From IMG/VR virus record IMGVR_UViG_2695420643_000016, positions 1 through 7,616 of that record: a DNA stretch of 7,616 bases. One strand, written 5' to 3'. Shown piece after piece: positions 1 through 7,616 of the stretch. The translations under genes were made by a program, and so were the position numbers. Under the pieces are notes generated by a model. The model was not told the DNA's origin and made no database searches. It worked only from the letters and a program-made list of their open reading frames with translations. Position 1 is the stretch's first letter, and each line of letters starts with the position of its first letter. This stretch comes from a virus (lineage: Duplodnaviria; Heunggongvirae; Uroviricota; Caudoviricetes).

Positions 1-96
1 GCAGAAGCAGAAAAAGCTTATTATGCTTCCATCGGAAACGATGATCTGGCAGCCTGAGTTCACAGATAAAATACTCTCCAGGAAACCCGGGGCGGT

Positions 97-204
97 TCAC
101 TGGCAGGCCTGAATCACAAACTGGCAGGCCACAATCTTTCCGCGCACAACATCACGGGCATACTGATTGGCAGCATTTACGTTGGGGTAAGATTTCCGGC
201 TCAT
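97..204 (-). pseudogene. N-terminal fragment of a large terminase (TerL-like), 35 codons ending in an in-frame TGA; probable truncated or disrupted terL
   Basis: ATG at 202..204 overlaps the terS stop (ATGA). Translation is [35 protein letters not shown] then TGA at 97..99. The Y-A-x-D-V-x-x-G-K-I-x-A-C ... A-C-Q pattern matches my recollection of the N-terminus of PF03354/COG4626 large terminases, where R-x-L-x-D-L normally follows. No frame in 1..96 continues that motif. A single-base misreading on my side cannot be excluded. Confidence 0.35.
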
Positions 205-695
205 GACTCGATGATTTTCAGAAACGGGTTAGTGGCTTTCTTCTGCCCCGCCAGGCCAATCAGACGCTGGCGGCTGCTGGGGTCGAGTCCGAGCATTGCC
301 CCCGTGCTGCTCATCTCGGACTCCTGTTCTTTTTTGGCGGTCAGCTCCGGATTTTTGACCCTGCCGCCCATTGCACCGGTGATGGTGTTGCCCTGTATGG
401 CAATATTTTTCACGGCACGTCGCCAGAACTCATAGGCCACGCACCACCGCTCAAGCACCGCGAGGTCAGTCACGCACAACAGGCCCTGACCGCAGAGTTC
501 TTTGGTTGTCAGTTGCCACATGATCGTGGCGAGAGGGAGATTTTCTTCTGCGAACCACTCCGGTGGCTCAACACCTTTGATGGGCGTAAAAACAGGTTCA
601 TCTTTATTCAGGGCTCGCTTGCCGGGGTTTCCGGCCAGCGCCTTGCGCGCCGTTGGCTTGGGGCGACGCCCGGAACGCCCCGCCGTTCCAGCCAT
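201..695 (-). CDS. terminase small subunit (P27-like family)
   Basis: Track ORF 201..704. Product [27 protein letters not shown]... resembles P27-family TerS as I recall it. The track start is GTG at 704; the in-frame ATG at 693..695 is preceded by AGGAG and is the likelier start. It sits immediately downstream of the HNH gene and is coupled to the next ORF by an ATGA overlap. Confidence 0.8.
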
Positions 696-745
696 ATGCG
701 GCACTCCTGGTTAAATTTCATTTTTCGCGGGTATAAAAAAACGAT

Positions 746-794
746 GGGGCGGGCAGTCCGGAAGACGTCAGGTCACAGGGATTTGACCCGCCCC
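746..794. other. candidate cos (cohesive end) region between the HNH and terS genes
   Basis: G-rich inverted repeat GGGGCGGG (746..753) and CCCGCCCC (787..794) flank a 33-bp core containing a GACGTC palindrome, preceded by an A7 tract. The GGGGCGGGCAGTCC string loosely resembles the lambda-type cohesive end GGGCGGCGACCT. The gene order HNH-cos-terS is the known HK97-type packaging arrangement. Confidence 0.3.
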
Positions 795-820
795 TCCCCT
801 CTTGCAGTGGGAACTGGTTC

Positions 821-1171
821 TTACTTCAGCCGTTCACGGGCCGTCTTCGCCTTATGACACGGCCAGCACAGGCTCTGCAGATTGCTGTCGGCATCAGTGC
901 CGCCATGCGCTTTAGGGATGATGTGGTCAACGGTTTTCGCCTCGCGCACCACACCGGCACGCAAACACAACTGACACAGGCCTTTGTCACGCTTTAGTAC
1001 ACGCCCCCGGATAACATCCCATTTCGAACCATAACCGCGCTGGTGTCGGGACTGGCCTGGCTTGTATTGCTTCCAGCCCTCGCTTTTGTGGCTTTCGCAA
1101 TAACCTGACGGGTCAGTCGTGGTATGGCGGCAGCCGCGAACTCGGCAGGCTTTTGGGGTTCGTGGTGGCAT
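821..1171 (-). CDS. HNH homing-type endonuclease, phage packaging-associated
   Basis: Track ORF 821..1270 begins with TTG; the in-frame ATG at 1169..1171 (MPPRTPKACRVRGCRH...) is preceded by GGAG at 5-nt spacing. The product has CxxC...C...H and DHIIPKAHGG...N...CWPCH motifs typical of HNH nucleases. It lies directly upstream of terS. Confidence 0.8.
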   Translation of the reverse strand: MPPRTPKACRVRGCRHTTTDPSGYCESHKSEGWKQYKPGQSRHQRGYGSKWDVIRGRVLKRDKGLCQLCLRAGVVREAKTVDHIIPKAHGGTDADSNLQSLCWPCHKAKTARERLK

Positions 1172-1292
1172 ATGTACTCCAATGAAGAAGCTACCGACAT
1201 AGCCTCCTCCATTCGTCGTGAAACTATTTTCATCTACCCAGTAATGAATTCTTTGAAGAGTCGAGATCAATACAACTCACTGATGGGAGAGG

Positions 1293-1314
1293 CTTGCCTC
1301 ACGCGTGAGGCAAG
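1293..1314. repeat. perfect 22-bp palindrome CTTGCCTCACGCGTGAGGCAAG (possible stem-loop or protein-binding site)
   Basis: Read directly from the sequence. It lies in the roughly 290-bp gap between the Rz1 stop and the HNH start. The T-rich flank TTTCCTGTTTGATTT is on the plus-strand side only, so it is not a canonical terminator for the minus-strand late transcript. Confidence 0.5.
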
Positions 1315-1394
1315 TTTCCTGTTTGATTTACTGGACAGTATAGGGGGGCAGAATGCCTTCCTCACTCGAATAACATCAATTAAGGAGGTTCAAC

Positions 1395-1517
1395 ATGTTT
1401 CATTCCACAAGTCATCAGGCTGTAATTATGGTAGCATCAGTTTGTGCCACATACCTTTTCCGCTTCACTTTGAGTCTGATTCATTTCTACCTGACCGGCT
1501 CGCCTCTATCTTTCTAA
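1395..1517 (+). CDS. hypothetical 40-aa hydrophobic peptide (possible small membrane protein)
   Basis: A consensus Shine-Dalgarno TAAGGAGGT sits 6 nt upstream of ATG 1395. Translation is MFHSTSHQAVIMVASVCATYLFRFTLSLIHFYLTGSPLSF with one predicted transmembrane span. It is in the opposite-strand position that the bor moron occupies in lambda. It overlaps the 3' end of Rz1 antisense and no convincing promoter was found. Confidence 0.2.
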   Translation: MFHSTSHQAVIMVASVCATYLFRFTLSLIHFYLTGSPLSF

Positions 1518-1740
1518 TCCCCGCTTTGTCAATATTGCATTGTCCCAACGCTGACAACAGACTCACATTCAACTCCAGACTGGCACCATACGTCAGCGGA
1601 TTGGGTATAAACGGTACAGGAGTATCAGAAGTCAGGCTGGCTGGCAGTGGTGCCACCGGAGCGCTCACGTAAACCGTTCGCGAATTTCCGCAACCGGTCA
1701 GCAGCGACAGCAGGCACAGGACGTGAAGCACAATCATCAT
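1465..1740 (-). CDS. Rz1: o-spanin (Rz1-like outer-membrane lipoprotein), overlapped architecture
   Basis: Tandem ATG-ATG at 1735..1740 in the +1 frame inside Rz. Product MMIVLHVLCLLSLLTGC... has a lipoprotein signal with lipobox LLTG-C followed by a proline-rich mature region. The frame stays open 160 bp past the Rz stop. Confidence 0.55.
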   Translation of the reverse strand: MMIVLHVLCLLSLLTGCGNSRTVYVSAPVAPLPASLTSDTPVPFIPNPLTYGASLELNVSLLSALGQCNIDKAGIRKIEASRSGRNESDSK

Positions 1741-2017
1741 CCGCAACAGCCACTTTGATATCTTCCTGGGTTCTCTGTGACTCCAGTGTGATCTGCTGTT
1801 TTGCATGCTGGTTAGCCTCCAGAACTGTATTGACGATTTGCAGTGATTGCAGGACGTTATTGGTAATGACAGTTGCCGATTTGGCATTTTGTACAGCCTC
1901 ATCAGCACGTTTCTTTTCGTGCTGATATTTGCTGTAGTAGTGGTTGGCAGACCAGATGAAAGAACCGATGACAGTAAAGAAGAATGCAGCGATAACCAAC
2001 TTATAGCTCAACTTCAT
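1625..2017 (-). CDS. Rz: i-spanin (Rz-like), N-terminal TM anchor plus coiled-coil periplasmic domain
   Basis: 130-aa ORF directly after the endolysin, overlapping its 3' end by 17 nt. N-terminal hydrophobic segment LVIAAFFFTVIGSFIW followed by a charged, helix-prone sequence. Rz1 is embedded or overlapped in the +1 frame. Confidence 0.75.
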   Translation of the reverse strand: MKLSYKLVIAAFFFTVIGSFIWSANHYYSKYQHEKKRADEAVQNAKSATVITNNVLQSLQIVNTVLEANQHAKQQITLESQRTQEDIKVAVADDDCASRPVPAVAADRLRKFANGLRERSGGTTASQPDF

Positions 2018-2477
2018 TTACCACCCCACCAGCCTCTTTAAACCGGGCAATCAGATCACCGATTTTATGTTCATACTGACCGTAACCAGCACCCGGCAAT
2101 GAAGCCCAGATATTGCTGCAACGGTCGATTGCCTGACGGATATCACCGCGATCAATCATCGGCAAAGCGCCACGCTCTTTAATCTGTTGCAATGCCACAG
2201 CGTCCTGACTTTTGGGAGAGAAGTCTTTCAGGCCAAGCTGATTACGGTAGGCATCCCACCAACGGGAAAGAAGCTGGTAACGTCCGGCGGCTGTTGATTT
2301 GAGTTTGGGGTTTAGCGTGACAAGTTTGCGAGGGTGATCGGAGTAATCAGTAAACATTTCACCACCGACAATAACATCATAACCGTGGTTACGTGTCGGT
2401 TGTCGCCCGTTATCCGTTCCTTCTGACCATGCAACCATATCCAGGAAAGCTTTACGCTGGGAATTTAGTACCTGCAT
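2001..2477 (-). CDS. R: endolysin, lambda R-type lytic transglycosylase
   Basis: 158-aa product MQVLNSQRKAFLDMVAWSEGTDNGRQPTRNHGYDVIVGGEMFTDYSDHPRKLVTLNPKLKS... is near-identical over most of its length to phage lambda R as I recall it, including the catalytic E in the WSEGTD motif. It sits between the holin and Rz. Confidence 0.92.
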   Translation of the reverse strand: MQVLNSQRKAFLDMVAWSEGTDNGRQPTRNHGYDVIVGGEMFTDYSDHPRKLVTLNPKLKSTAAGRYQLLSRWWDAYRNQLGLKDFSPKSQDAVALQQIKERGALPMIDRGDIRQAIDRCSNIWASLPGAGYGQYEHKIGDLIARFKEAGGVVNEVEL

Positions 2478-2480
2478 AAA

Positions 2481-2807
2481 TTACTCCTTAGAGCCACCAA
2501 ACTTATTACCGATTACTCTCATTGCAGCCCCACGAATAGCATCGACCCCGATCAGCCCAACGCCGCCACCAATGGCAACAGAAAGAGATTTAGGCCATCC
2601 GACATACTCAAGAGCGGATGCAAAAGTCAGCGTCAGAGCACCACAGAGCAAAATCTCGAGCGTTTTTCGTTTCCAGCCACCACCACCGCCAAAATAGGCA
2701 ATGCGCAAGCCAGCCATAACGATCGACATAATCACTGCGCCCAGCGGTGTGTCTCCACGCCACCAGCTCTGGACCAACTCCAGCCAGGTATTTGGGTTAT
2801 GAGGCAT
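2481..2807 (-). CDS. holin (class I-like, three predicted TM segments)
   Basis: 108-aa ORF immediately upstream of the endolysin with a 3-nt gap. Three hydrophobic stretches (LGAVIMSIVMAGLRIAYF, LEILLCGALTLTFASALEYV, LSVAIGGGVGLIGVDAI) and a charged C-terminus. The size matches lambda S. Confidence 0.7.
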   Translation of the reverse strand: MPHNPNTWLELVQSWWRGDTPLGAVIMSIVMAGLRIAYFGGGGGWKRKTLEILLCGALTLTFASALEYVGWPKSLSVAIGGGVGLIGVDAIRGAAMRVIGNKFGGSKE

Positions 2808-2959
2808 TTGTAGTTATCTCTCACCTCGCTGATACAGCAGGTGCAAATTGAGGGAACATCATGTACCGCAAATCAGAAGCGGAAACATCAAAGAAGCCGA
2901 ACCGATGGAGAACTGCGGAATAGGCCAGGACCAACGAATCCCCAGCCACAGAAACGACA

Positions 2960-2981
2960 AAACCCGCTCGACGGCGGGTTT
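2960..2981 (-). terminator. tR'-like intrinsic terminator in the late leader upstream of the holin
   Basis: On the minus strand, AAACCCGC-CGUCGA-GCGGGUUU (8-bp stem, 6-nt loop) is followed by UGUCGUUUCUG, a hairpin plus U-rich tract. It lies about 150 nt upstream of the holin start, where lambdoid phages place tR' between pR' and S. Confidence 0.4.
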
Positions 2982-3103
2982 AAGCTGTGTGGCGAAGTAA
3001 CCACTCTTAACAGATTACAATGTTTTTTGCGGAACGCGCTAATGATTTCCTCTTTTTTTTGTTGTATTTTTCACACGGTTGCTAAAATTATTTCGGATCG
3101 ATA
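2982..3103 (-). promoter_or_regulatory. inferred late promoter (pR') and Q-utilisation region, exact elements unresolved
   Basis: Inferred from position between the tR'-like hairpin and the cassette. The only -10-like hexamer on the minus strand is TGTAAT (plus coordinates 3015..3020) with a weak -35. No element could be assigned with confidence. Confidence 0.25.
3059..3088 (+). promoter_or_regulatory. candidate sigma70 promoter for the plus-strand cassette
   Basis: TTGTTG (3059..3064), 18-bp spacer, TAAAAT (3083..3088), about 15 nt upstream of ATG 3104. It is embedded in a T-rich tract that includes a T8 homopolymer at 3053..3060. The leader would be very short and has a weak SD. Confidence 0.25.
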
Positions 3104-4045
3104 ATGAGTACAGAAAATAAGAATAAAACCAGGCGAGTGAGAGTTGGTTTTTTCACTGGTAATGGAAGCAAAAAAGATGGCACATCTGCTGCAAAACTAG
3201 CCTTTGAGCAAATGACCACAGCAGATACTGTAACTTTTCCAATAACTTACACAACAGACACCCCAAATCGAGGGTTAAAGTTAGTTATTCTTCAAAAAGA
3301 TACCACACTGCAATGTTACTTTGGTTACGTATCGTGGAGAAGGGAATGCCTACTACCGTTCATCGAGGATGCTACAGGTAGTGAGAGAACAATTCCTTTA
3401 AATGATAAAGATTCTGTAGTTGAAAGAACATATTTTATCTATTACTACGAAACGGACTTATTAGCTATGACCCTCAACCATATAGGGCCCAAAGTAAATG
3501 ATCTGGCATTCATTTTGTATAACAAAACTGATTTAAAAAGCGTCACTTTTGAAGCCATTTGGAAACAAGAGAGCATGAAGGAACTGCTTGAGGACGGAAA
3601 TATCCTACGTAGTTTCGATCTTATAGTTGCTGCTCCAAGAAACTTTAACAAAGCTAATTATAAGATTAAAAACCCTTTAGCTAATGAAATTATTGACATG
3701 GTTGTTGGTATGGGCGGGTCGCATCTAAGATTAAATATGCGAGGTCGGATTCGCCCGAAAAAACAAGGATTTAACTATCTAAAAACTTCTGTCACCGATG
3801 CTATTAAGGAACTACTTGAACTTTTTCCAAAAGGTTCTGGAGGTCTAAAAATTAAAAAAATTGATGTAACAGAGCCATCCAATAGAACGCCCAAAAGTCT
3901 ACTTGACCAAGTATTGGTCAGTACAAAGACAATCATTGTCAAAAGCGGTTATCCATCCGATTCTGATATCAGAACGGCGATGATATCTGCTAAAATTGAT
4001 AACGCGAACTATCTTGCACAGTATGAGCTCGCTAGCAGAGACTAA
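3104..4045 (+). CDS. hypothetical 313-aa soluble protein, first gene of the AT-rich cassette; candidate sensor component of a RexA/RexB-like two-gene defence module
   Basis: Long ORF on the strand opposite the phage late operon. Hand-counted GC is about 33-37% versus about 58% in a flanking phage gene. No signal peptide or TM segment, and no Walker, HxH, DEAD or PD-(D/E)xK motif that I could recognise. It is followed after 21 nt by a membrane-protein gene. Confidence 0.8.
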   Translation: MSTENKNKTRRVRVGFFTGNGSKKDGTSAAKLAFEQMTTADTVTFPITYTTDTPNRGLKLVILQKDTTLQCYFGYVSWRRECLLPFIEDATGSERTIPLNDKDSVVERTYFIYYYETDLLAMTLNHIGPKVNDLAFILYNKTDLKSVTFEAIWKQESMKELLEDGNILRSFDLIVAAPRNFNKANYKIKNPLANEIIDMVVGMGGSHLRLNMRGRIRPKKQGFNYLKTSVTDAIKELLELFPKGSGGLKIKKIDVTEPSNRTPKSLLDQVLVSTKTIIVKSGYPSDSDIRTAMISAKIDNANYLAQYELASRD

Positions 4046-4066
4046 TAACCAAGCATGGAGGACACA

Positions 4067-4516
4067 ATGAGAGAATTAGCCACTTTTCTCTGGAAATGCG
4101 TCCTCTGGATTCTGTTGACCTATGCAGCGACAAAACTGTTTAAACCGATGAAGCATGCTGACGTACTCACAACAGCGGGGGTGCTCTCGACTATATCAGG
4201 CATCCTGTTTGGTTTTGTTCTGGCTGCAATATCTATATTTAGTAGTGCAAACAGCGATAAGGAAGGAGCAATTAATGCCCTTAAGCAAAACAACGTGTTA
4301 CCAACTCTGGTAAATAGATTACTTTCAACAGGGTTAACTCTCATCGTCGCGTGTATATTTCCATTGATAGCGATGTTTCTACCTGATGATGTTATTGTTG
4401 CGGGCAAACCTATTGATTTCCTGTTCATACTGTTAGGCTTATCCTCCCTTATAATTTCGCTATATACCTTCGGAAGGTGTTGGTTAGTGTTACGAAAAAT
4501 CTTCCCCCACTTGTGA
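4067..4516 (+). CDS. hypothetical 149-aa inner-membrane protein with four predicted TM helices; candidate effector of the cassette
   Basis: Track ORF 4055..4516. The ATG at 4067 is preceded by GGAGG at 5-nt spacing; the ATG at 4055 has no SD and would add MEDT. Four hydrophobic segments of about 20 aa each (FLWKCVLWILLTYAATKLF, VLSTISGILFGFVLAAISIF, LLSTGLTLIVACIFPLIAMFL, IDFLFILLGLSSLIISLYTF). Same AT-rich composition as the upstream gene. Confidence 0.8.
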   Translation: MRELATFLWKCVLWILLTYAATKLFKPMKHADVLTTAGVLSTISGILFGFVLAAISIFSSANSDKEGAINALKQNNVLPTLVNRLLSTGLTLIVACIFPLIAMFLPDDVIVAGKPIDFLFILLGLSSLIISLYTFGRCWLVLRKIFPHL

Positions 4517-4545
4517 CAGGTTGGCCTCATATGGGGCCAACCTGT
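4516..4545. repeat. stem-loop (11-bp perfect stem, 8-nt loop) at the convergent junction between the cassette and the Q gene
   Basis: ACAGGTTGGCC (4516..4526) pairs with GGCCAACCTGT (4535..4545). It begins at the stop codon of the membrane-protein gene and ends 7 nt before the Q stop. No U-tract on either strand. Confidence 0.45.
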
Positions 4546-4551
4546 GCAACC

Positions 4552-4917
4552 CTAAGCGTCCATTTCAAGGTTAACATCCAACATTGAAAGGCAACCATCA
4601 ATAAATCCTTCGGCTAGTTGTATTTCTATGCGTACCAATTTTTCATCCTTTCCACGCACCTTTGCAATCTTACGCTTGGATATTCTGTATAAATAATGTG
4701 CCACAAGCAGCGAGTGCTCATCTGGCTTTTTTTGCTTTAGACGAGCAAGACAACCTTCAATAATTAATGCATCACTATCTGAACAAGCCTGACGTGTTTT
4801 GCTTGTGTAGGGAAGAAGCCCCTTAAACCCAGCAGCTATAGGCGAATAGTCTACTCCAGAACTATCACTCGCCGCCCATGCTCCCCAACGCTCCAGAACC
4901 ATCTGAATATCACGCAT
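4552..4917 (-). CDS. late-gene antiterminator Q, short QuuD-like family
   Basis: Product MRDIQMVLERWGAWAA...AAGFKGL...LEMDA matches my recollection of the DLP12 Q homologue QuuD in its N-terminus and overall pattern. The track start is TTG at 4920; the ATG at 4915..4917 is preceded by GGAG. It sits between the nin-like genes and the lysis cassette. Confidence 0.7.
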   Translation of the reverse strand: MRDIQMVLERWGAWAASDSSGVDYSPIAAGFKGLLPYTSKTRQACSDSDALIIEGCLARLKQKKPDEHSLLVAHYLYRISKRKIAKVRGKDEKLVRIEIQLAEGFIDGCLSMLDVNLEMDA

Positions 4918-4934
4918 CAACTTTCTCCACCAAA

Positions 4935-5930
4935 TCAGGCCAACACCCCAATCGCCAGCGCGCGATCGATAAAACGAAATATCAGCTCCAGTTGGGAGCC
5001 ATACTTCTCTTCAAATGCCACGGTATCCGCATGCAGCTCGTCGTGATGCTTTCTGCACAAAGGCAACACAAAGAGGTCATGCGCTTTTGTACCCATTCCA
5101 CCCTGACCGTGACCTATCAGGTGGTGGGGATCATCAGCAGGCTTTCCACAACATGCACACGGCTGTGTCTTAACCCAGCGCGTGTACTTTTCATTAACCC
5201 AGCGGCGGCGTTTTGGTCGTAACATAAAAGACTCCAGCGACTCCGGATCCACTTTCAGCGCCAGCACCTTTTTCGCTTTATCCTGGATAATGCTGGTGGC
5301 AGGAACCGAAGGCACAAGGTCACTTTCCCGGGTGACCGCCTGCACAACAGGCTTCGGTAATCTCAGTGCCTTACGGGCTGCACTTTCCGGTAAGGCATCC
5401 GCCAGGTCATTACGAATCAGCCACCAGCACAGTTCCGGTATTGTCACAACGTGACTGTCATCAAAACCGAGATCCCGACGCACAACAGACAACACCCAGC
5501 GGGCACAGTTATCCGTTGCCATTGATTCCAGCCGTTCCGTGAACTGATCGCGCAGCTGGTTATCGCAGTGCCAGCACAAACGGATTGCGCCCGGAGCGTG
5601 TCGCATTGTTGTCATGTTCTCGCTGTGCCAGTCGGAATGAGGCCACTGGCAGCCTTTTTCACGAAGTAACCAGCTTTCAAGACATTCCACGCCACCAGCA
5701 CGACGGATCACTGCCTCATTGCGGAATACGGCCCGAACGGCAGGATCATCCGCCAGCGGTTGTGATGCCGCCGGAACGGCACCACTGGCGAAAGATGAAT
5801 AACGTTCCGGCTCAGGCTCCAGCAGGACACGCCCCTGCATAAACAGGGGCATCAACTCTGAACCTGGCCTGAACAATACGATCCCCATACGCGGGGCAAT
5901 TTCAGGGGTCAGTAGTGCTCTCACGGTCAC
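4935..5930 (-). CDS. DUF968-like prophage protein with C-terminal zinc-ribbon/HNH-like motif
   Basis: 331-aa ORF directly upstream of Q, the position YdfU (DUF968) occupies next to the Q gene in the Qin prophage. C-terminal CACCGK...DPHH...GGMG.K...LPLCRKHHDELH motif. The track start is GTG, 1 nt after the stop of the upstream gene. Confidence 0.55.
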   Translation of the reverse strand: MTVRALLTPEIAPRMGIVLFRPGSELMPLFMQGRVLLEPEPERYSSFASGAVPAASQPLADDPAVRAVFRNEAVIRRAGGVECLESWLLREKGCQWPHSDWHSENMTTMRHAPGAIRLCWHCDNQLRDQFTERLESMATDNCARWVLSVVRRDLGFDDSHVVTIPELCWWLIRNDLADALPESAARKALRLPKPVVQAVTRESDLVPSVPATSIIQDKAKKVLALKVDPESLESFMLRPKRRRWVNEKYTRWVKTQPCACCGKPADDPHHLIGHGQGGMGTKAHDLFVLPLCRKHHDELHADTVAFEEKYGSQLELIFRFIDRALAIGVLA

Positions 5931-5931
5931 C

Positions 5932-6741
5932 TCAATGAACGGTATCGAGCAGCTTTAACAGCTCAGGGAATCGGGATTCGAAGAAATGCGGCTGCGTCTC
6001 GCGCGGATTTGCGGGACTGGTGATGTTCTTGCCGAACATGCAGCCTTTCGCTGTCAGCGACCAGAATTTTTTGATGTTGTTAATCGCGGTACGGCTGTAT
6101 CGTTCGCGCTGCTCGACGATCCCCAGCTTCACCATCTGGTGATATGCCTGATTAGCCGTCAGGCGGATACCATACTGTTTCAGCAGTGCACTCAGTGACA
6201 GCGTAGGGCGACTTGAGCCATCGTGTGCATCAGCAGGAGCATCAATGGCATAGCGCGGTGCCAGATTCGGTAAGCCAACAGCCTCCTGGAGTTTCTGACA
6301 GGCCCCAAGCACTGAAGAGTTAGACAGGTTTAACTCCCTGCGCATAAAGTCCAGCAGAATCACTCCAGCCTGCATCTTGTCAGCAGCCTGCCCGGATAAT
6401 TTTTCCGGTGCGCTGGTTACCATATCGAAAGTACGGATCACCTTCAGATGGAATGACGGGCTGATCCACATTGCATAGGCATACACCAGTTCTTTGCAGA
6501 CATACGTCCCCTGGTTATTTCCGCCATTAATGACGCTAACTGGTTGATTTTGTTCCAGAGGCGGAATTCCACCCTCGGTGAAAAGTTGTTCAATCAATTC
6601 ACAGGTTTGCTTATTGGAGAGCCAGTATTTCGGGCGGTTTTTTTGTTCTCCCCCGGCTGCCCTGTGCAGATCGTTCAGGCTGTAACGCCCATAAGCATCA
6701 CGACGAACTTCAATACCATCAATGACCATCAGATTATTCAT
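5932..6741 (-). CDS. KilA-N domain protein with a C-terminal domain of unknown function
   Basis: N-terminal region MNNLMVIDGIEVRRDAYGRYSLNDLHRAAGG...KYWLSNKQT...VCKELVYAYAMWISPSFHLKVI resembles the KilA-N DNA-binding domain. The track start at 6774 has no SD and overlaps rusA; the ATG at 6739..6741 is preceded by AGGAGA and is preferred. Confidence 0.75.
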   Translation of the reverse strand: MNNLMVIDGIEVRRDAYGRYSLNDLHRAAGGEQKNRPKYWLSNKQTCELIEQLFTEGGIPPLEQNQPVSVINGGNNQGTYVCKELVYAYAMWISPSFHLKVIRTFDMVTSAPEKLSGQAADKMQAGVILLDFMRRELNLSNSSVLGACQKLQEAVGLPNLAPRYAIDAPADAHDGSSRPTLSLSALLKQYGIRLTANQAYHQMVKLGIVEQRERYSRTAINNIKKFWSLTAKGCMFGKNITSPANPRETQPHFFESRFPELLKLLDTVH

Positions 6742-6760
6742 ACTTCGTTTCTCCTCTTGA

Positions 6761-7150
6761 TCAGGCGGCTGCACCCGCCGTTTTCTCGTACTTACTGATA
6801 GTGATCTCGACCTTCCCTTCCGGGATAACCGGTCCCCACTCCACCAGCATTCTTTTCACCTGGCTGTCGTCTTCCCACACACCCGCGTGAGTCAGGGCGT
6901 CAAACAGCGCCTTGTTATAGTTGTCCAGATCGCGGATCCGGTTATCCGGAGGAAACAACACGATCTCCACTGAAGCAGGTGCTGACGTTGGTTTCGGCAG
7001 ACGACGTAACTGCTCAACTATTGCTGTGCACGCCGCACTCTGGAATTTTCGCCCCGCCGCGCTTATCAGGCTCTTACCAGCAAACGCCCCTTTGTTGGGG
7101 TGTCGCCAGTACGTGTTCACGCTGGGCGGAAAAGGCAGGATCAGCTTCAT
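6761..7150 (-). CDS. rusA: Holliday junction resolvase RusA
   Basis: 129-aa product with the RusA signature region DLDNYNKALFDALTHAGVWEDDSQV, which resembles E. coli RusA (DLDN..KA.FDALT.AG.W.DD.QV). Typical nin-region position. Its start overlaps the stop of the upstream gene (ATGA). Confidence 0.85.
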   Translation of the reverse strand: MKLILPFPPSVNTYWRHPNKGAFAGKSLISAAGRKFQSAACTAIVEQLRRLPKPTSAPASVEIVLFPPDNRIRDLDNYNKALFDALTHAGVWEDDSQVKRMLVEWGPVIPEGKVEITISKYEKTAGAAA

Positions 7151-7473
7151 GCTTTCAGGCCTCTCTCATGTAACCAGTGGGTTGCACGCAGCCTTGCGTT
7201 TTCCTCACCGGCAAGCAGTGAGCGGATAATCCCGACCGCCTCGCTGTCGTCGTCCTTCACCGCGGTATGAAGCGTTATCCCCCGGGCCACGCCACGCTTT
7301 ATCGTGATGACGCCTTTTTTCTCCAGTGCGCGAAGATGCTCCACCGCTGCATTCACTGAACGGTATCCCAGCATGGTTGCCACCTCCTGATTGGTTGGCG
7401 GGAAGCCACGTTCTTTCTGGTAAGAAATCAGCATATCCAGCACCTGCTGCTGGCATTGAGTTAATGTCGTCAT
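7147..7473 (-). CDS. LexA-family N-terminal DNA-binding domain protein (winged helix), no peptidase domain
   Basis: Product MTTLTQCQQQVLDMLISYQKERGFPPTNQEVATMLGYRSVNAAVEHLRALEKKGVITI...ARGI parallels the LexA N-terminal domain (LT.RQ.EV...I......G.PPT..EIA..LG..S.NAA.EHL.AL..KG.I). At 108 aa it is too short to carry the S24 peptidase domain. Confidence 0.8.
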   Translation of the reverse strand: MTTLTQCQQQVLDMLISYQKERGFPPTNQEVATMLGYRSVNAAVEHLRALEKKGVITIKRGVARGITLHTAVKDDDSEAVGIIRSLLAGEENARLRATHWLHERGLKA

Positions 7474-7616
7474 GCCGCCATCTCCCTGACCAGTTTTTCT
7501 GCCTGCTGGCGAACCTGCGCCAGAAACGCCTCACCACATGCCTCAAGTTCATCGCGCCCGATGTAGCTGATTGCCGGTCCCTTCCAGGTCTTGTCGAAAA
7601 CAGCAATAGCACCAGC
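7470..7616 (-). CDS. 3' end of a gene of unknown function running off the right edge of the window
   Basis: Open frame from the window edge, translated C-terminus ...AGAIAVFDKTWKGPAISYIGRDELEACGEAFLAQVRQQAEKLVREMAA, ending at TGA 7470..7472, which overlaps the next gene's ATG (ATGA). It is in a different frame from the spurious Arg-rich track ORF 7205..7612. Confidence 0.5.
   Translation of the reverse strand, partial: AGAIAVFDKTWKGPAISYIGRDELEACGEAFLAQVRQQAEKLVREMAA

Follow-up and report, generated by a model that had tools for sequence, protein, structure and literature searches.

Gene content of the window

The window analyzed here, a stretch of 7,616 nucleotides (positions 1 to 7,616 of the IMG/VR record IMGVR_UViG_2695420643_000016), comes from a lambdoid, HK97-like prophage, of which it forms the late region; the genes lie on the minus strand. 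Those assigned in this region are as follows:

201-704, minus strand: small terminase
821-1171, minus strand: HNH endonuclease
1465-1740, minus strand: LysC/Rz1-like o-spanin (Pfam PF23793, E = 1.5e-16; lipobox LLTGC), overlapping the Rz-like gene
1625-2017, minus strand: Rz-like i-spanin
2001-2477, minus strand: endolysin
2481-2807, minus strand: lambda-type holin
4552-4920, minus strand: Q antiterminator
4935-5930, minus strand: DUF968/HNHc_6 protein, upstream of Q
5932-6774, minus strand: KilA-N domain protein, upstream of Q
6761-7150: RusA
7147-7473: LexA-type DNA-binding domain protein

The genes for the DUF968/HNHc_6, KilA-N, RusA, and LexA-type proteins are ordinary lambdoid nin-region content, and a CDS equivalent to LysC is annotated in locus L001 and in Shigella phage SfIV. 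No single-subunit RNA polymerase is encoded within the window. Between the HNH gene and LysC, and reaching into the 3' end of the latter, the plus strand carries a set of elements, here referred to as the module:

1268-1290, plus strand: box 1, a predicted Berlinvirus/T7-type promoter (-17 to +6), CAATACAACTCACTGATGGGAGA, with the predicted +1 at G1285
1287-1319, plus strand: predicted stem-loop at +3 of the box-1 transcript, then a U-rich tract (UUUCCUGUUUGAUUU), based on folding and covariation
1325-1347, plus strand: box 2, a predicted Vectrevirus-type (K1-5/K1E, SP6-like) promoter, GATTTACTGGACAGTATAGGGGG, with the predicted +1 at G1343
1348-1380, plus strand: conserved 5' untranslated region
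1381-1389, plus strand: Shine-Dalgarno (SD) sequence, TAAGGAGGT
1395-1517, plus strand: small hydrophobic ORF of 40 aa (ATG at 1395-1397, TAA at 1515-1517)

The small ORF and its product

A previous inspection of this DNA (the sequence-only reading) had called attention to the ORF because of its consensus ribosome-binding site at good spacing. Our analysis bears this out: the GGAGG of the SD sequence is separated from the ATG by a spacer of 6 nt, the SD sequence is unpaired in the predicted fold, and the two elements together form a strong translation signal. Likewise, the 40-aa product, MFHSTSHQAVIMVASVCATYLFRFTLSLIHFYLTGSPLSF, is as described and hydrophobic, with a best 19-residue Kyte-Doolittle window of 1.77. 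The suggestion that it forms a single hydrophobic helix fits the window allele best, in which residue 20 is Y and the helix is clearest; in contrast, most E. coli alleles have D20. Across the peptide family, the Kyte-Doolittle values range from 0.9 to 2.3, and the majority of the peptides carry a hydrophobic segment at 1.4-2.3, while the SfIV-type allele is weakly hydrophobic (0.90). As also proposed previously, the ORF lies on the strand opposite the late operon and antisense to the end of an Rz1-type gene; the overlap with LysC spans 1465-1517, i.e., 53 nt comprising the last 17 codons of the small ORF.

The small ORF is rarely called by gene callers. An HMMER search of 1.84 billion representatives returned only seven matches, all to the same peptide family, and the peptides had no family match in Pfam, PHROGs, or PADLOC. 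A peptide-pattern scan of GTDB species representatives gave only a spurious match in Thermoguttaceae. At the E. coli loci, the PGAP annotation shows nothing at the position of the module, and one phage record has a 123-nt CDS annotated as a "hypothetical protein."

Conservation of the reading frame

Window positions 1250-1581 match hundreds of complete E. coli genomes at ~89-91% identity. There are 829 matching E. coli records in total; judged from evenly spaced rows of these, of which 22 out of 30 cover the module part, the module seems to be present in about three quarters of them. Because peptide-based searches favor intact copies, we used a DNA anchor upstream of the SD sequence, and hence a scan blind to the ORF, to collect loci from IMG/VR. 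The 40-codon frame was intact in all 80 loci obtained; one of these is truncated at the end of its contig, and in six a partial tandem copy is present as well. A second DNA anchor located just after the stop codon, in the antisense of a conserved LysC motif, yielded 84 unique haplotypes. Most of these have an ORF of 32-41 aa preceded by GGAGG or AGGAG 5-9 nt before the ATG and ending at exactly the same TAA. They represent approximately ten lineages from E. coli, Shigella, and Klebsiella that are very different from one another; every lineage has a strong SD sequence of its own, and the stop position is common to all. The peptides of these lineages (e.g., MSHIEIIQLIDSYVLLATHIICLIIAYRKLIADLSRRS, MSQNQFFELAKAYADGINAIISLICLLIAKHYGVLQYF, and MLEVLNTLAPFAPAINAIVILICSIIAKYYGVLPLPF, and in Klebsiella MLKISLLSTIVNHKITFAVIYFLLSLIHFYLTGSPLSF and MHKPLIKLFLIKLLFSGFFQRFTLSLAHYYLTGYPLSF) share almost nothing but hydrophobicity and have no common motif pointing to a target. 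One Klebsiella form, P0019, is present on 298 contigs. In phage SfIV, in which the locus is 78% identical to the window and LysC is kept, the ORF is kept with a rewritten N-terminal half and an identical C-terminal half.

All 12 divergent representatives have the frame open, together with an SD sequence and an ATG, while the other two plus-strand frames are open in 1 and 6 of the 12. The probability that the part outside LysC is open by chance is 0.18-0.48 per representative, with a product of 9e-7 over the 12. In line with this, the sequence-only reading's concern that this may be a chance ORF is not supported: the ORF, its SD sequence, and its stop have been retained in hundreds of prophages and in some ten diverged lineages. 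The substitution signal for coding is only moderate. The pN/pS ratio is below 1 in seven of the eight groups, between 0.20 and 0.85 with the E. coli group at the upper value, and reaches 1.65 in a group with two members. Variation at the three codon positions is 1/2/7 in the C-terminal half in the E. coli/Shigella set and shows no bias in the near-neutral N-terminal half (10/10/5) or in the LysC overlap in the wider family (15/15/19). Because the bias is clear only in the C-terminal half in the E. coli/Shigella set, we dropped codon-position bias as a clean coding signal. Nevertheless, the changes in this half are non-synonymous for LysC, because third positions of the plus-strand frame are second positions of LysC. 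Altogether, we consider translation of the small ORF very probable and the constraint on it weak to moderate; this conclusion derives mainly from the repeated maintenance of SD, ATG, frame, and stop rather than from the substitution pattern.

Among 47 unique E. coli/Shigella haplotypes, the leader, the SD sequence, and the C-terminal half of the ORF are the most conserved segments: the 5' untranslated region has 18% variable columns compared with 63% downstream of the ORF, and the segment from SD to ATG has 12%. In the rare E. coli peptide alleles P0005, P0006, P0008, P0009, and P0026, which are 52-66 aa long, the C-termini are frameshifted or replaced, and, therefore, some copies are decaying.

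Genomic neighborhood of the module

In most of ~800 E. coli genomes, the HNH gene and iss/bor flank the module, which has the same orientation as iss, as the sequence-only reading had anticipated in referring to a bor-equivalent position. In the common arrangement (L003 3145-3741, ~600 genomes), it lies ~180 bp upstream of iss. We also considered whether the module travels with iss on ColV plasmids, and rejected this because the ColV iss region is without the module.

The relationship to LysC varies. In the iss-type E. coli loci, LysC is absent save for a 3' remnant of ~65 nt; in these loci, in Klebsiella phage Kp4856-1, and in L215, all three of which rely on another spanin type, the module is kept with the LysC 3' remnant only. 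Conversely, in SfV-type phages and E. coli S163-2, LysC is present with a different tail, and the ORF and the upstream elements are both missing. Thus, the overlap with LysC is not essential to the module, and LysC is context rather than part of it. The LysC remnants attached to the small ORF in prophages with a different spanin pair (L003 3268-3331; L214 1502-1588; L215 3065-3240) suggest recombination inside the highly conserved LysC motif TCCCCGCCTTATCCAGATTGCA.

Predicted phage-type promoters upstream of the ORF

The promoter-like boxes were first noticed on aligning the upstream regions of the diverged lineages. The sequence-only reading had identified no promoter; the two boxes, which are of the type used by phage RNA polymerases, lie 52 and 110 nt upstream of the ATG and lead us to revise this point. 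Only two sites in the window, 1268-1290 and 1326-1348, both on the plus strand, have ≤7 mismatches in 23 positions to the T7, T3, SP6, or K11 consensus on either strand, compared with a random expectation of 0.42 such sites; box 1 has 5/23 mismatches to the T7 consensus. We then scored the window with position weight matrices (PWMs) built from 13 annotated promoters of phage Yepe2 (Berlin type) and from 13 sites of K1-5, using as the random maximum the best score among 300 random 7.6-kb sequences. Box 1 scores 25.8 bits (natural leave-one-out range, 22.1-36.5; random maximum, 20.9; next best site in the window, 7.4), and box 2 scores 26.0 bits (natural leave-one-out range, 20.0-37.2; random maximum, 17.2; next best site, 2.7). 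Both window copies are at the low end of the natural range, and closer relatives reach 29-37 bits. The deviations are a G at -3 in box 1 and a G at -5 together with a GGGGG start in box 2; one natural K1-5 site shares the GGACAGTATAG variant of the window. We conclude that the boxes in the window are plausible promoters for phage RNA polymerases, at the weak end.

Scans of the window and of three further lineages (L003, L214, and L215) detected no sigma-70-like promoter ahead of the ORF, nor was one found on either strand of window positions 1100-1800; a single sigma-70-like match in L215 is inside the ORF. Because the SD sequence is unpaired and no sigma-70 promoter was found, control of the ORF would be transcriptional.

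The stem-loop that starts at +3 of the predicted box-1 transcript has a folding energy of -20.8 kcal/mol (z = -3.3). Across nine alleles, its 14 pairs are 91% paired, compared with 33-50% with slid partners, and there are three compensatory double changes. The transcript from the Yepe2 promoter phi9 also begins GGGAG...CUCCC, and the arrangement therefore copies a natural one. The stem-loop may stabilize the 5' end of the transcript. It was also flagged by a simple terminator scan, and, because a U-rich tract follows it, some box-1 transcripts could stop early. After the small ORF, folding revealed no terminator-like structure.

The boxes match lytic phages and change with the host genus

When the common E. 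coli box alleles were compared by BLAST with 50,697 phage records, the box-2 allele TTGATTTACTGGACACTATAGAAGGA matched with 93-97% identity in Vectrevirus phages (K1-5, K1E, AAPEc6, and others), at 6-9 places in each genome. For the Berlin-type allele ATCAATACAACTCACTAATGGGAGAGG, each genome of Berlinvirus and of other T7-like phages had 2-6 matching places, and these matches are annotated as promoters in Yepe2 and FE44. The common E. coli box-1 allele (...ACAACTCACTAATGGGAGAG) is identical to the annotated Yepe2 promoter phi9. Klebsiella-type loci have different boxes in the same places:

T7-type box: TAATGCGACTCACTATAGAGAGA, with 2/23 mismatches to T7, matching 5-7 T7 promoters per genome
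K11-type box: AATTAGGGCCCACTATAGAGACC, for which 135 of 144 matching records are Klebsiella phages, mostly of ~40 kb
T3-like box: GATTAACCCTCACTATAGGTTGG
SP6-like box: a unit of stem-loop plus TTTAATAGTGGCCAGTATAGAAGG, at 6-8 places per genome in Klebsiella phages, e.g., S16c

Thus, the promoter specificities change with the host genus between the E. coli/Shigella and the Klebsiella loci.

The boxes are also specific with respect to position and strand. In 1.85 Mb of related prophage DNA scanned with ≤4 mismatches to six consensus sequences, all 261 matches are inside the module and on the plus strand (16 of them in a tandem-duplicated module copy), with none elsewhere or on the opposite strand. 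Among 102 unique upstream regions, 69 have both ORF and promoter, 9 the ORF only, none the promoter only, and 24 neither; shared ancestry inflates the counts, although the pattern itself is clear-cut. In most of the nine ORF-only regions, inspection by eye identified other -TATAG- boxes.

In L001, a 287-bp tandem duplication (2923-3209 and 3210-3496) extends from the 5' end of the HNH gene to the SD sequence and doubles both boxes; the same duplication is present in six other loci (L131, L134, L139, L142, L174, and L185). In its first copy, SD and start have decayed (TTACGGAGCTTCAACACGG), and the box alleles of the window match this copy. In Klebsiella-type loci, a perfect palindrome, TTTGTCTCCTATAAGAGACAAA, is located upstream of the promoter array (L215 2793-2814), and a conserved box, GTTACACAATAGAA, lies ~40 nt before the SD sequence (L215 2952-2965), both with equivalents in L224, L277, and L227. 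Neither matches the promoter consensuses tested; the box GTTACACAATAGAA may be a promoter used by a different group of phages.

Comparison with known systems

The closest likeness is to the late transcription units of T7-group phages. The 23-bp boxes of the module score like the phages' own; the predicted start is G-rich, the stem-loop begins at +3, and the SD sequence is of the AAGGAGG type. The T7 phi10/gene 10 leader, with its class III promoter, 5' stem-loop, and strong SD sequence, resembles the module. By score and recurrence, the boxes are predicted to be promoters of the T7 and SP6 groups. In contrast to the late units, the module belongs to a lambdoid, temperate prophage with a Q antiterminator but without a single-subunit polymerase, and it has at least two promoter specificities in tandem. 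A tblastn search with a Klebsiella peptide identified no homologue of the payload in lytic T7-like genomes.

The likeness to type I toxins (Hok, TisB, Ibs, ShoB, Ldr, and ZorO) that the sequence-only reading had pointed out applies to the peptide (32-41 aa with one hydrophobic segment), to its location on a mobile element, and to the antisense gene overlap. It does not extend to regulation: the module has no host-type sigma-70 promoter, no signature of an antitoxin sRNA with its own promoter, and an exposed rather than sequestered SD sequence. A search of the whole window against Rfam (E up to 1) returned no match and no known sRNA, and the late-operon mRNA is the only antisense transcript expected over the small ORF. 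Gating would, therefore, come from the transcribing polymerase and not from an antisense RNA. The prophage sRNA svsR (PMC12803456) was considered as the same element and rejected, as it is located at the 3' end of cI and is unrelated.

The Bor/Iss morons occupy the same place, between lysis cassette and head genes, on the same strand as the small ORF. Unlike Bor/Iss, which is a lipoprotein of 97 aa, the small ORF is present with or without iss, and the signal peptide plus lipobox, length of ~97 aa, and Bor family assignment of such lipoproteins are not found in its product, which has no lipobox and no Pfam match. Similarly, holins and pinholins are small membrane proteins that are encoded beside lysis genes and can collapse the membrane potential; the small ORF differs in being on the strand opposite the endolysin gene, in being shorter, in its single weakly hydrophobic segment, and in having no holin-family match in Pfam, PHROGs, or PADLOC.

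Resident elements can be trans-activated by transcription factors of an incoming phage, as in P2 Ogr/P4 delta cross-activation and PICI/SaPI induction, and engineered "triggered-suicide" cassettes of Lactococcus combine a phage-inducible promoter with a lethal gene. AbiD1 is reported to be induced by a phage protein (PMC2661086). The module resembles these in being a silent resident gene that would be switched on by the expression machinery of an invader. It would differ in that its sensor is single-subunit promoter mimicry alone, aimed at unrelated lytic phages, and in that no mobilization is gained. In the full-text literature searched, with subscription journals mostly outside, neither promoters of T7 or SP6 type carried by prophages nor the small ORF were described, and we found no example of a natural trap that works by polymerase-promoter mimicry. 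Prophage-encoded, infection-triggered defense is already known, while the principle of sensing by promoter mimicry appears to be undescribed.

A proposed prophage-borne trap for T7- and SP6-like phages

We suggest, at about even odds, that the module is a prophage trap in which the polymerase of an invader expresses a small membrane peptide, resulting in abortive infection or exclusion. The module would comprise, in this order, a T7/Berlin-type promoter, a stem-loop, a K1-5/SP6-type promoter, a leader, a strong SD sequence, and an ORF of 32-41 aa as the payload. Because the prophage uses the host RNA polymerase and Q and has no single-subunit polymerase, the module should stay silent in the lysogen and during the prophage's own induction. 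An infecting T7-like or SP6-like phage (Autographiviridae) would shut off host transcription and make its own polymerase, which would recognize the mimic promoters and transcribe the small ORF. The exposed SD sequence would then allow immediate translation, and the peptide could damage or depolarize the membrane, or otherwise block the invader, before its progeny are finished. Abortive infection or exclusion would protect sister lysogens. The sequence comparisons establish the ORF and its conservation, the promoter matches with their strand and position specificity, their diversity in step with the host, and their co-occurrence with the ORF. From this architecture, we infer the firing of the promoters in vivo, the synthesis of the peptide, its entry into the membrane, its toxicity, and the lowered phage yield.

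Several considerations weigh against a trap. T7-like phages degrade the host DNA within minutes, so that a trap in the chromosome would have little time to act. K1-5-type phages need a K1 or K5 capsule, and the module is also found in O157:H7. Moreover, the stem-loop and U-tract could terminate box-1 transcripts. No PADLOC model for abortive infection or exclusion matches the module.

We extend the proposal, with confidence somewhat short of even, to a minimal "promoter-mimic trap" in prophages of E. coli, Shigella, and Klebsiella that would combine promoters copied from local T7-, T3-, K11-, and SP6-like phages with a membrane-toxic peptide. The polymerase of the invader would then kill the infected cell even once transcription by the host has ceased, and the diversity of Autographiviridae promoters would be partly an escape from such traps.

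Alternative explanations

The peptide could be a real small membrane protein without being part of a trap: it could serve in lysogenic conversion, modulate lysis, or act as a type I-like toxin, and be expressed from an unrecognized host promoter, with the phage-type promoters being secondary. The classic moron position at bor/iss, the co-orientation with iss in most E. coli copies, and the small size and hydrophobicity of the product speak for this possibility. We nevertheless consider it unlikely: no sigma-70-like promoter precedes the ORF in the four lineages scanned, no antitoxin RNA or Rfam family was found, the SD sequence is not sequestered, and boxes of several foreign specificities that accompany the ORF, and are never found without it, would be left unexplained. 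It is also conceivable that the transcript rather than the peptide matters and that an invader's polymerase runs antisense through the lysis genes or makes an RNA, the ORF being incidental. The phage-type promoters are well supported, read-through past the ORF, where no terminator-like fold was found, would be antisense to LysC, Rz, endolysin, and holin, and the N-terminal half of the ORF evolves almost neutrally, all of which would fit. However, in every lineage a strong SD sequence and an in-frame ATG are kept at a fixed distance from the stop while the surroundings are unalignable, and the reading frame, in contrast to the other two plus-strand frames, is open in all 12 representatives. The module also persists where the LysC-type lysis genes are replaced by iss or other genes, and, because of these replacements, there is no constant antisense target. 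We regard an RNA-only function as rather improbable.

Another possibility, improbable to a slightly greater degree in our judgment, is that the module is evolutionary debris, a functionless captured fragment of an Autographiviridae genome with promoter, leader, and small gene. A T7-group late transcription unit is indeed what the boxes resemble, together with the strong SD sequence and the stem-loop that follows +1, and the rare frameshifted alleles P0005, P0006, P0008, P0009, and P0026 would fit. This explanation does not sit well with the tblastn matches of the Klebsiella peptide, all of which are to temperate-type phage records and none to lytic T7-like genomes, or with the fact that at least five promoter specificities have been swapped in, matched to the host genus, with the architecture kept. 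Moreover, the module is widespread and intact, and the 5' leader, the SD sequence, and the C-terminal half of the ORF are its most conserved segments. Finally, selection on the overlapping LysC tail could in principle create the appearance of conservation in a chance ORF, given that the last 17 codons overlap LysC and that the best conserved part of the peptide is in or next to the overlap. This reading is disfavored, and we consider it very improbable, because ~22 codons, the SD sequence, and the ATG are outside LysC; because the ORF persists even with LysC reduced to a remnant; because the 1/2/7 variation in the C-terminal half in E. coli/Shigella is non-synonymous for LysC; and because LysC occurs in SfV-type phages that have neither the ORF nor the promoters.

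Implications and reach of the predicted transcripts

If the trap proposal is correct, the module would be a defense with a DNA sensor of ~23 bp and an effector of ~40 codons, far smaller than known systems. Because it would use the invader's own enzyme, it would work after the host RNA polymerase is shut off, as occurs during T7 infection. Such a defense would be invisible to protein-based defense finders, as the ORF is rarely called and has no Pfam, PHROGs, or PADLOC model. It could also help explain why the polymerases and promoters of the T7 group are split into many mutually exclusive specificities, and it would matter for phage therapy, in which T7-, K1E/K1-5-, and KP32-like phages are favored against E. 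coli K1 and Klebsiella. Even without a role in defense, the presence within prophages of promoters for foreign polymerases is new and calls for an explanation.

In the common E. coli arrangement, iss would also be transcribed by read-through from these promoters, because the module is upstream of and co-oriented with it. In the window, two co-oriented genes between the holin and Q genes (3104-4516, plus strand) encode products of 313 aa and 153 aa (several hydrophobic segments). This stretch has a GC content of 36-43%, compared with ~55% around it, and neither gene has a match in Pfam or PADLOC; it looks like a moron or a candidate defense cassette. The two genes are on the same strand as the small ORF and ~1.6 kb downstream of it, where an unterminated processive phage polymerase could reach them.
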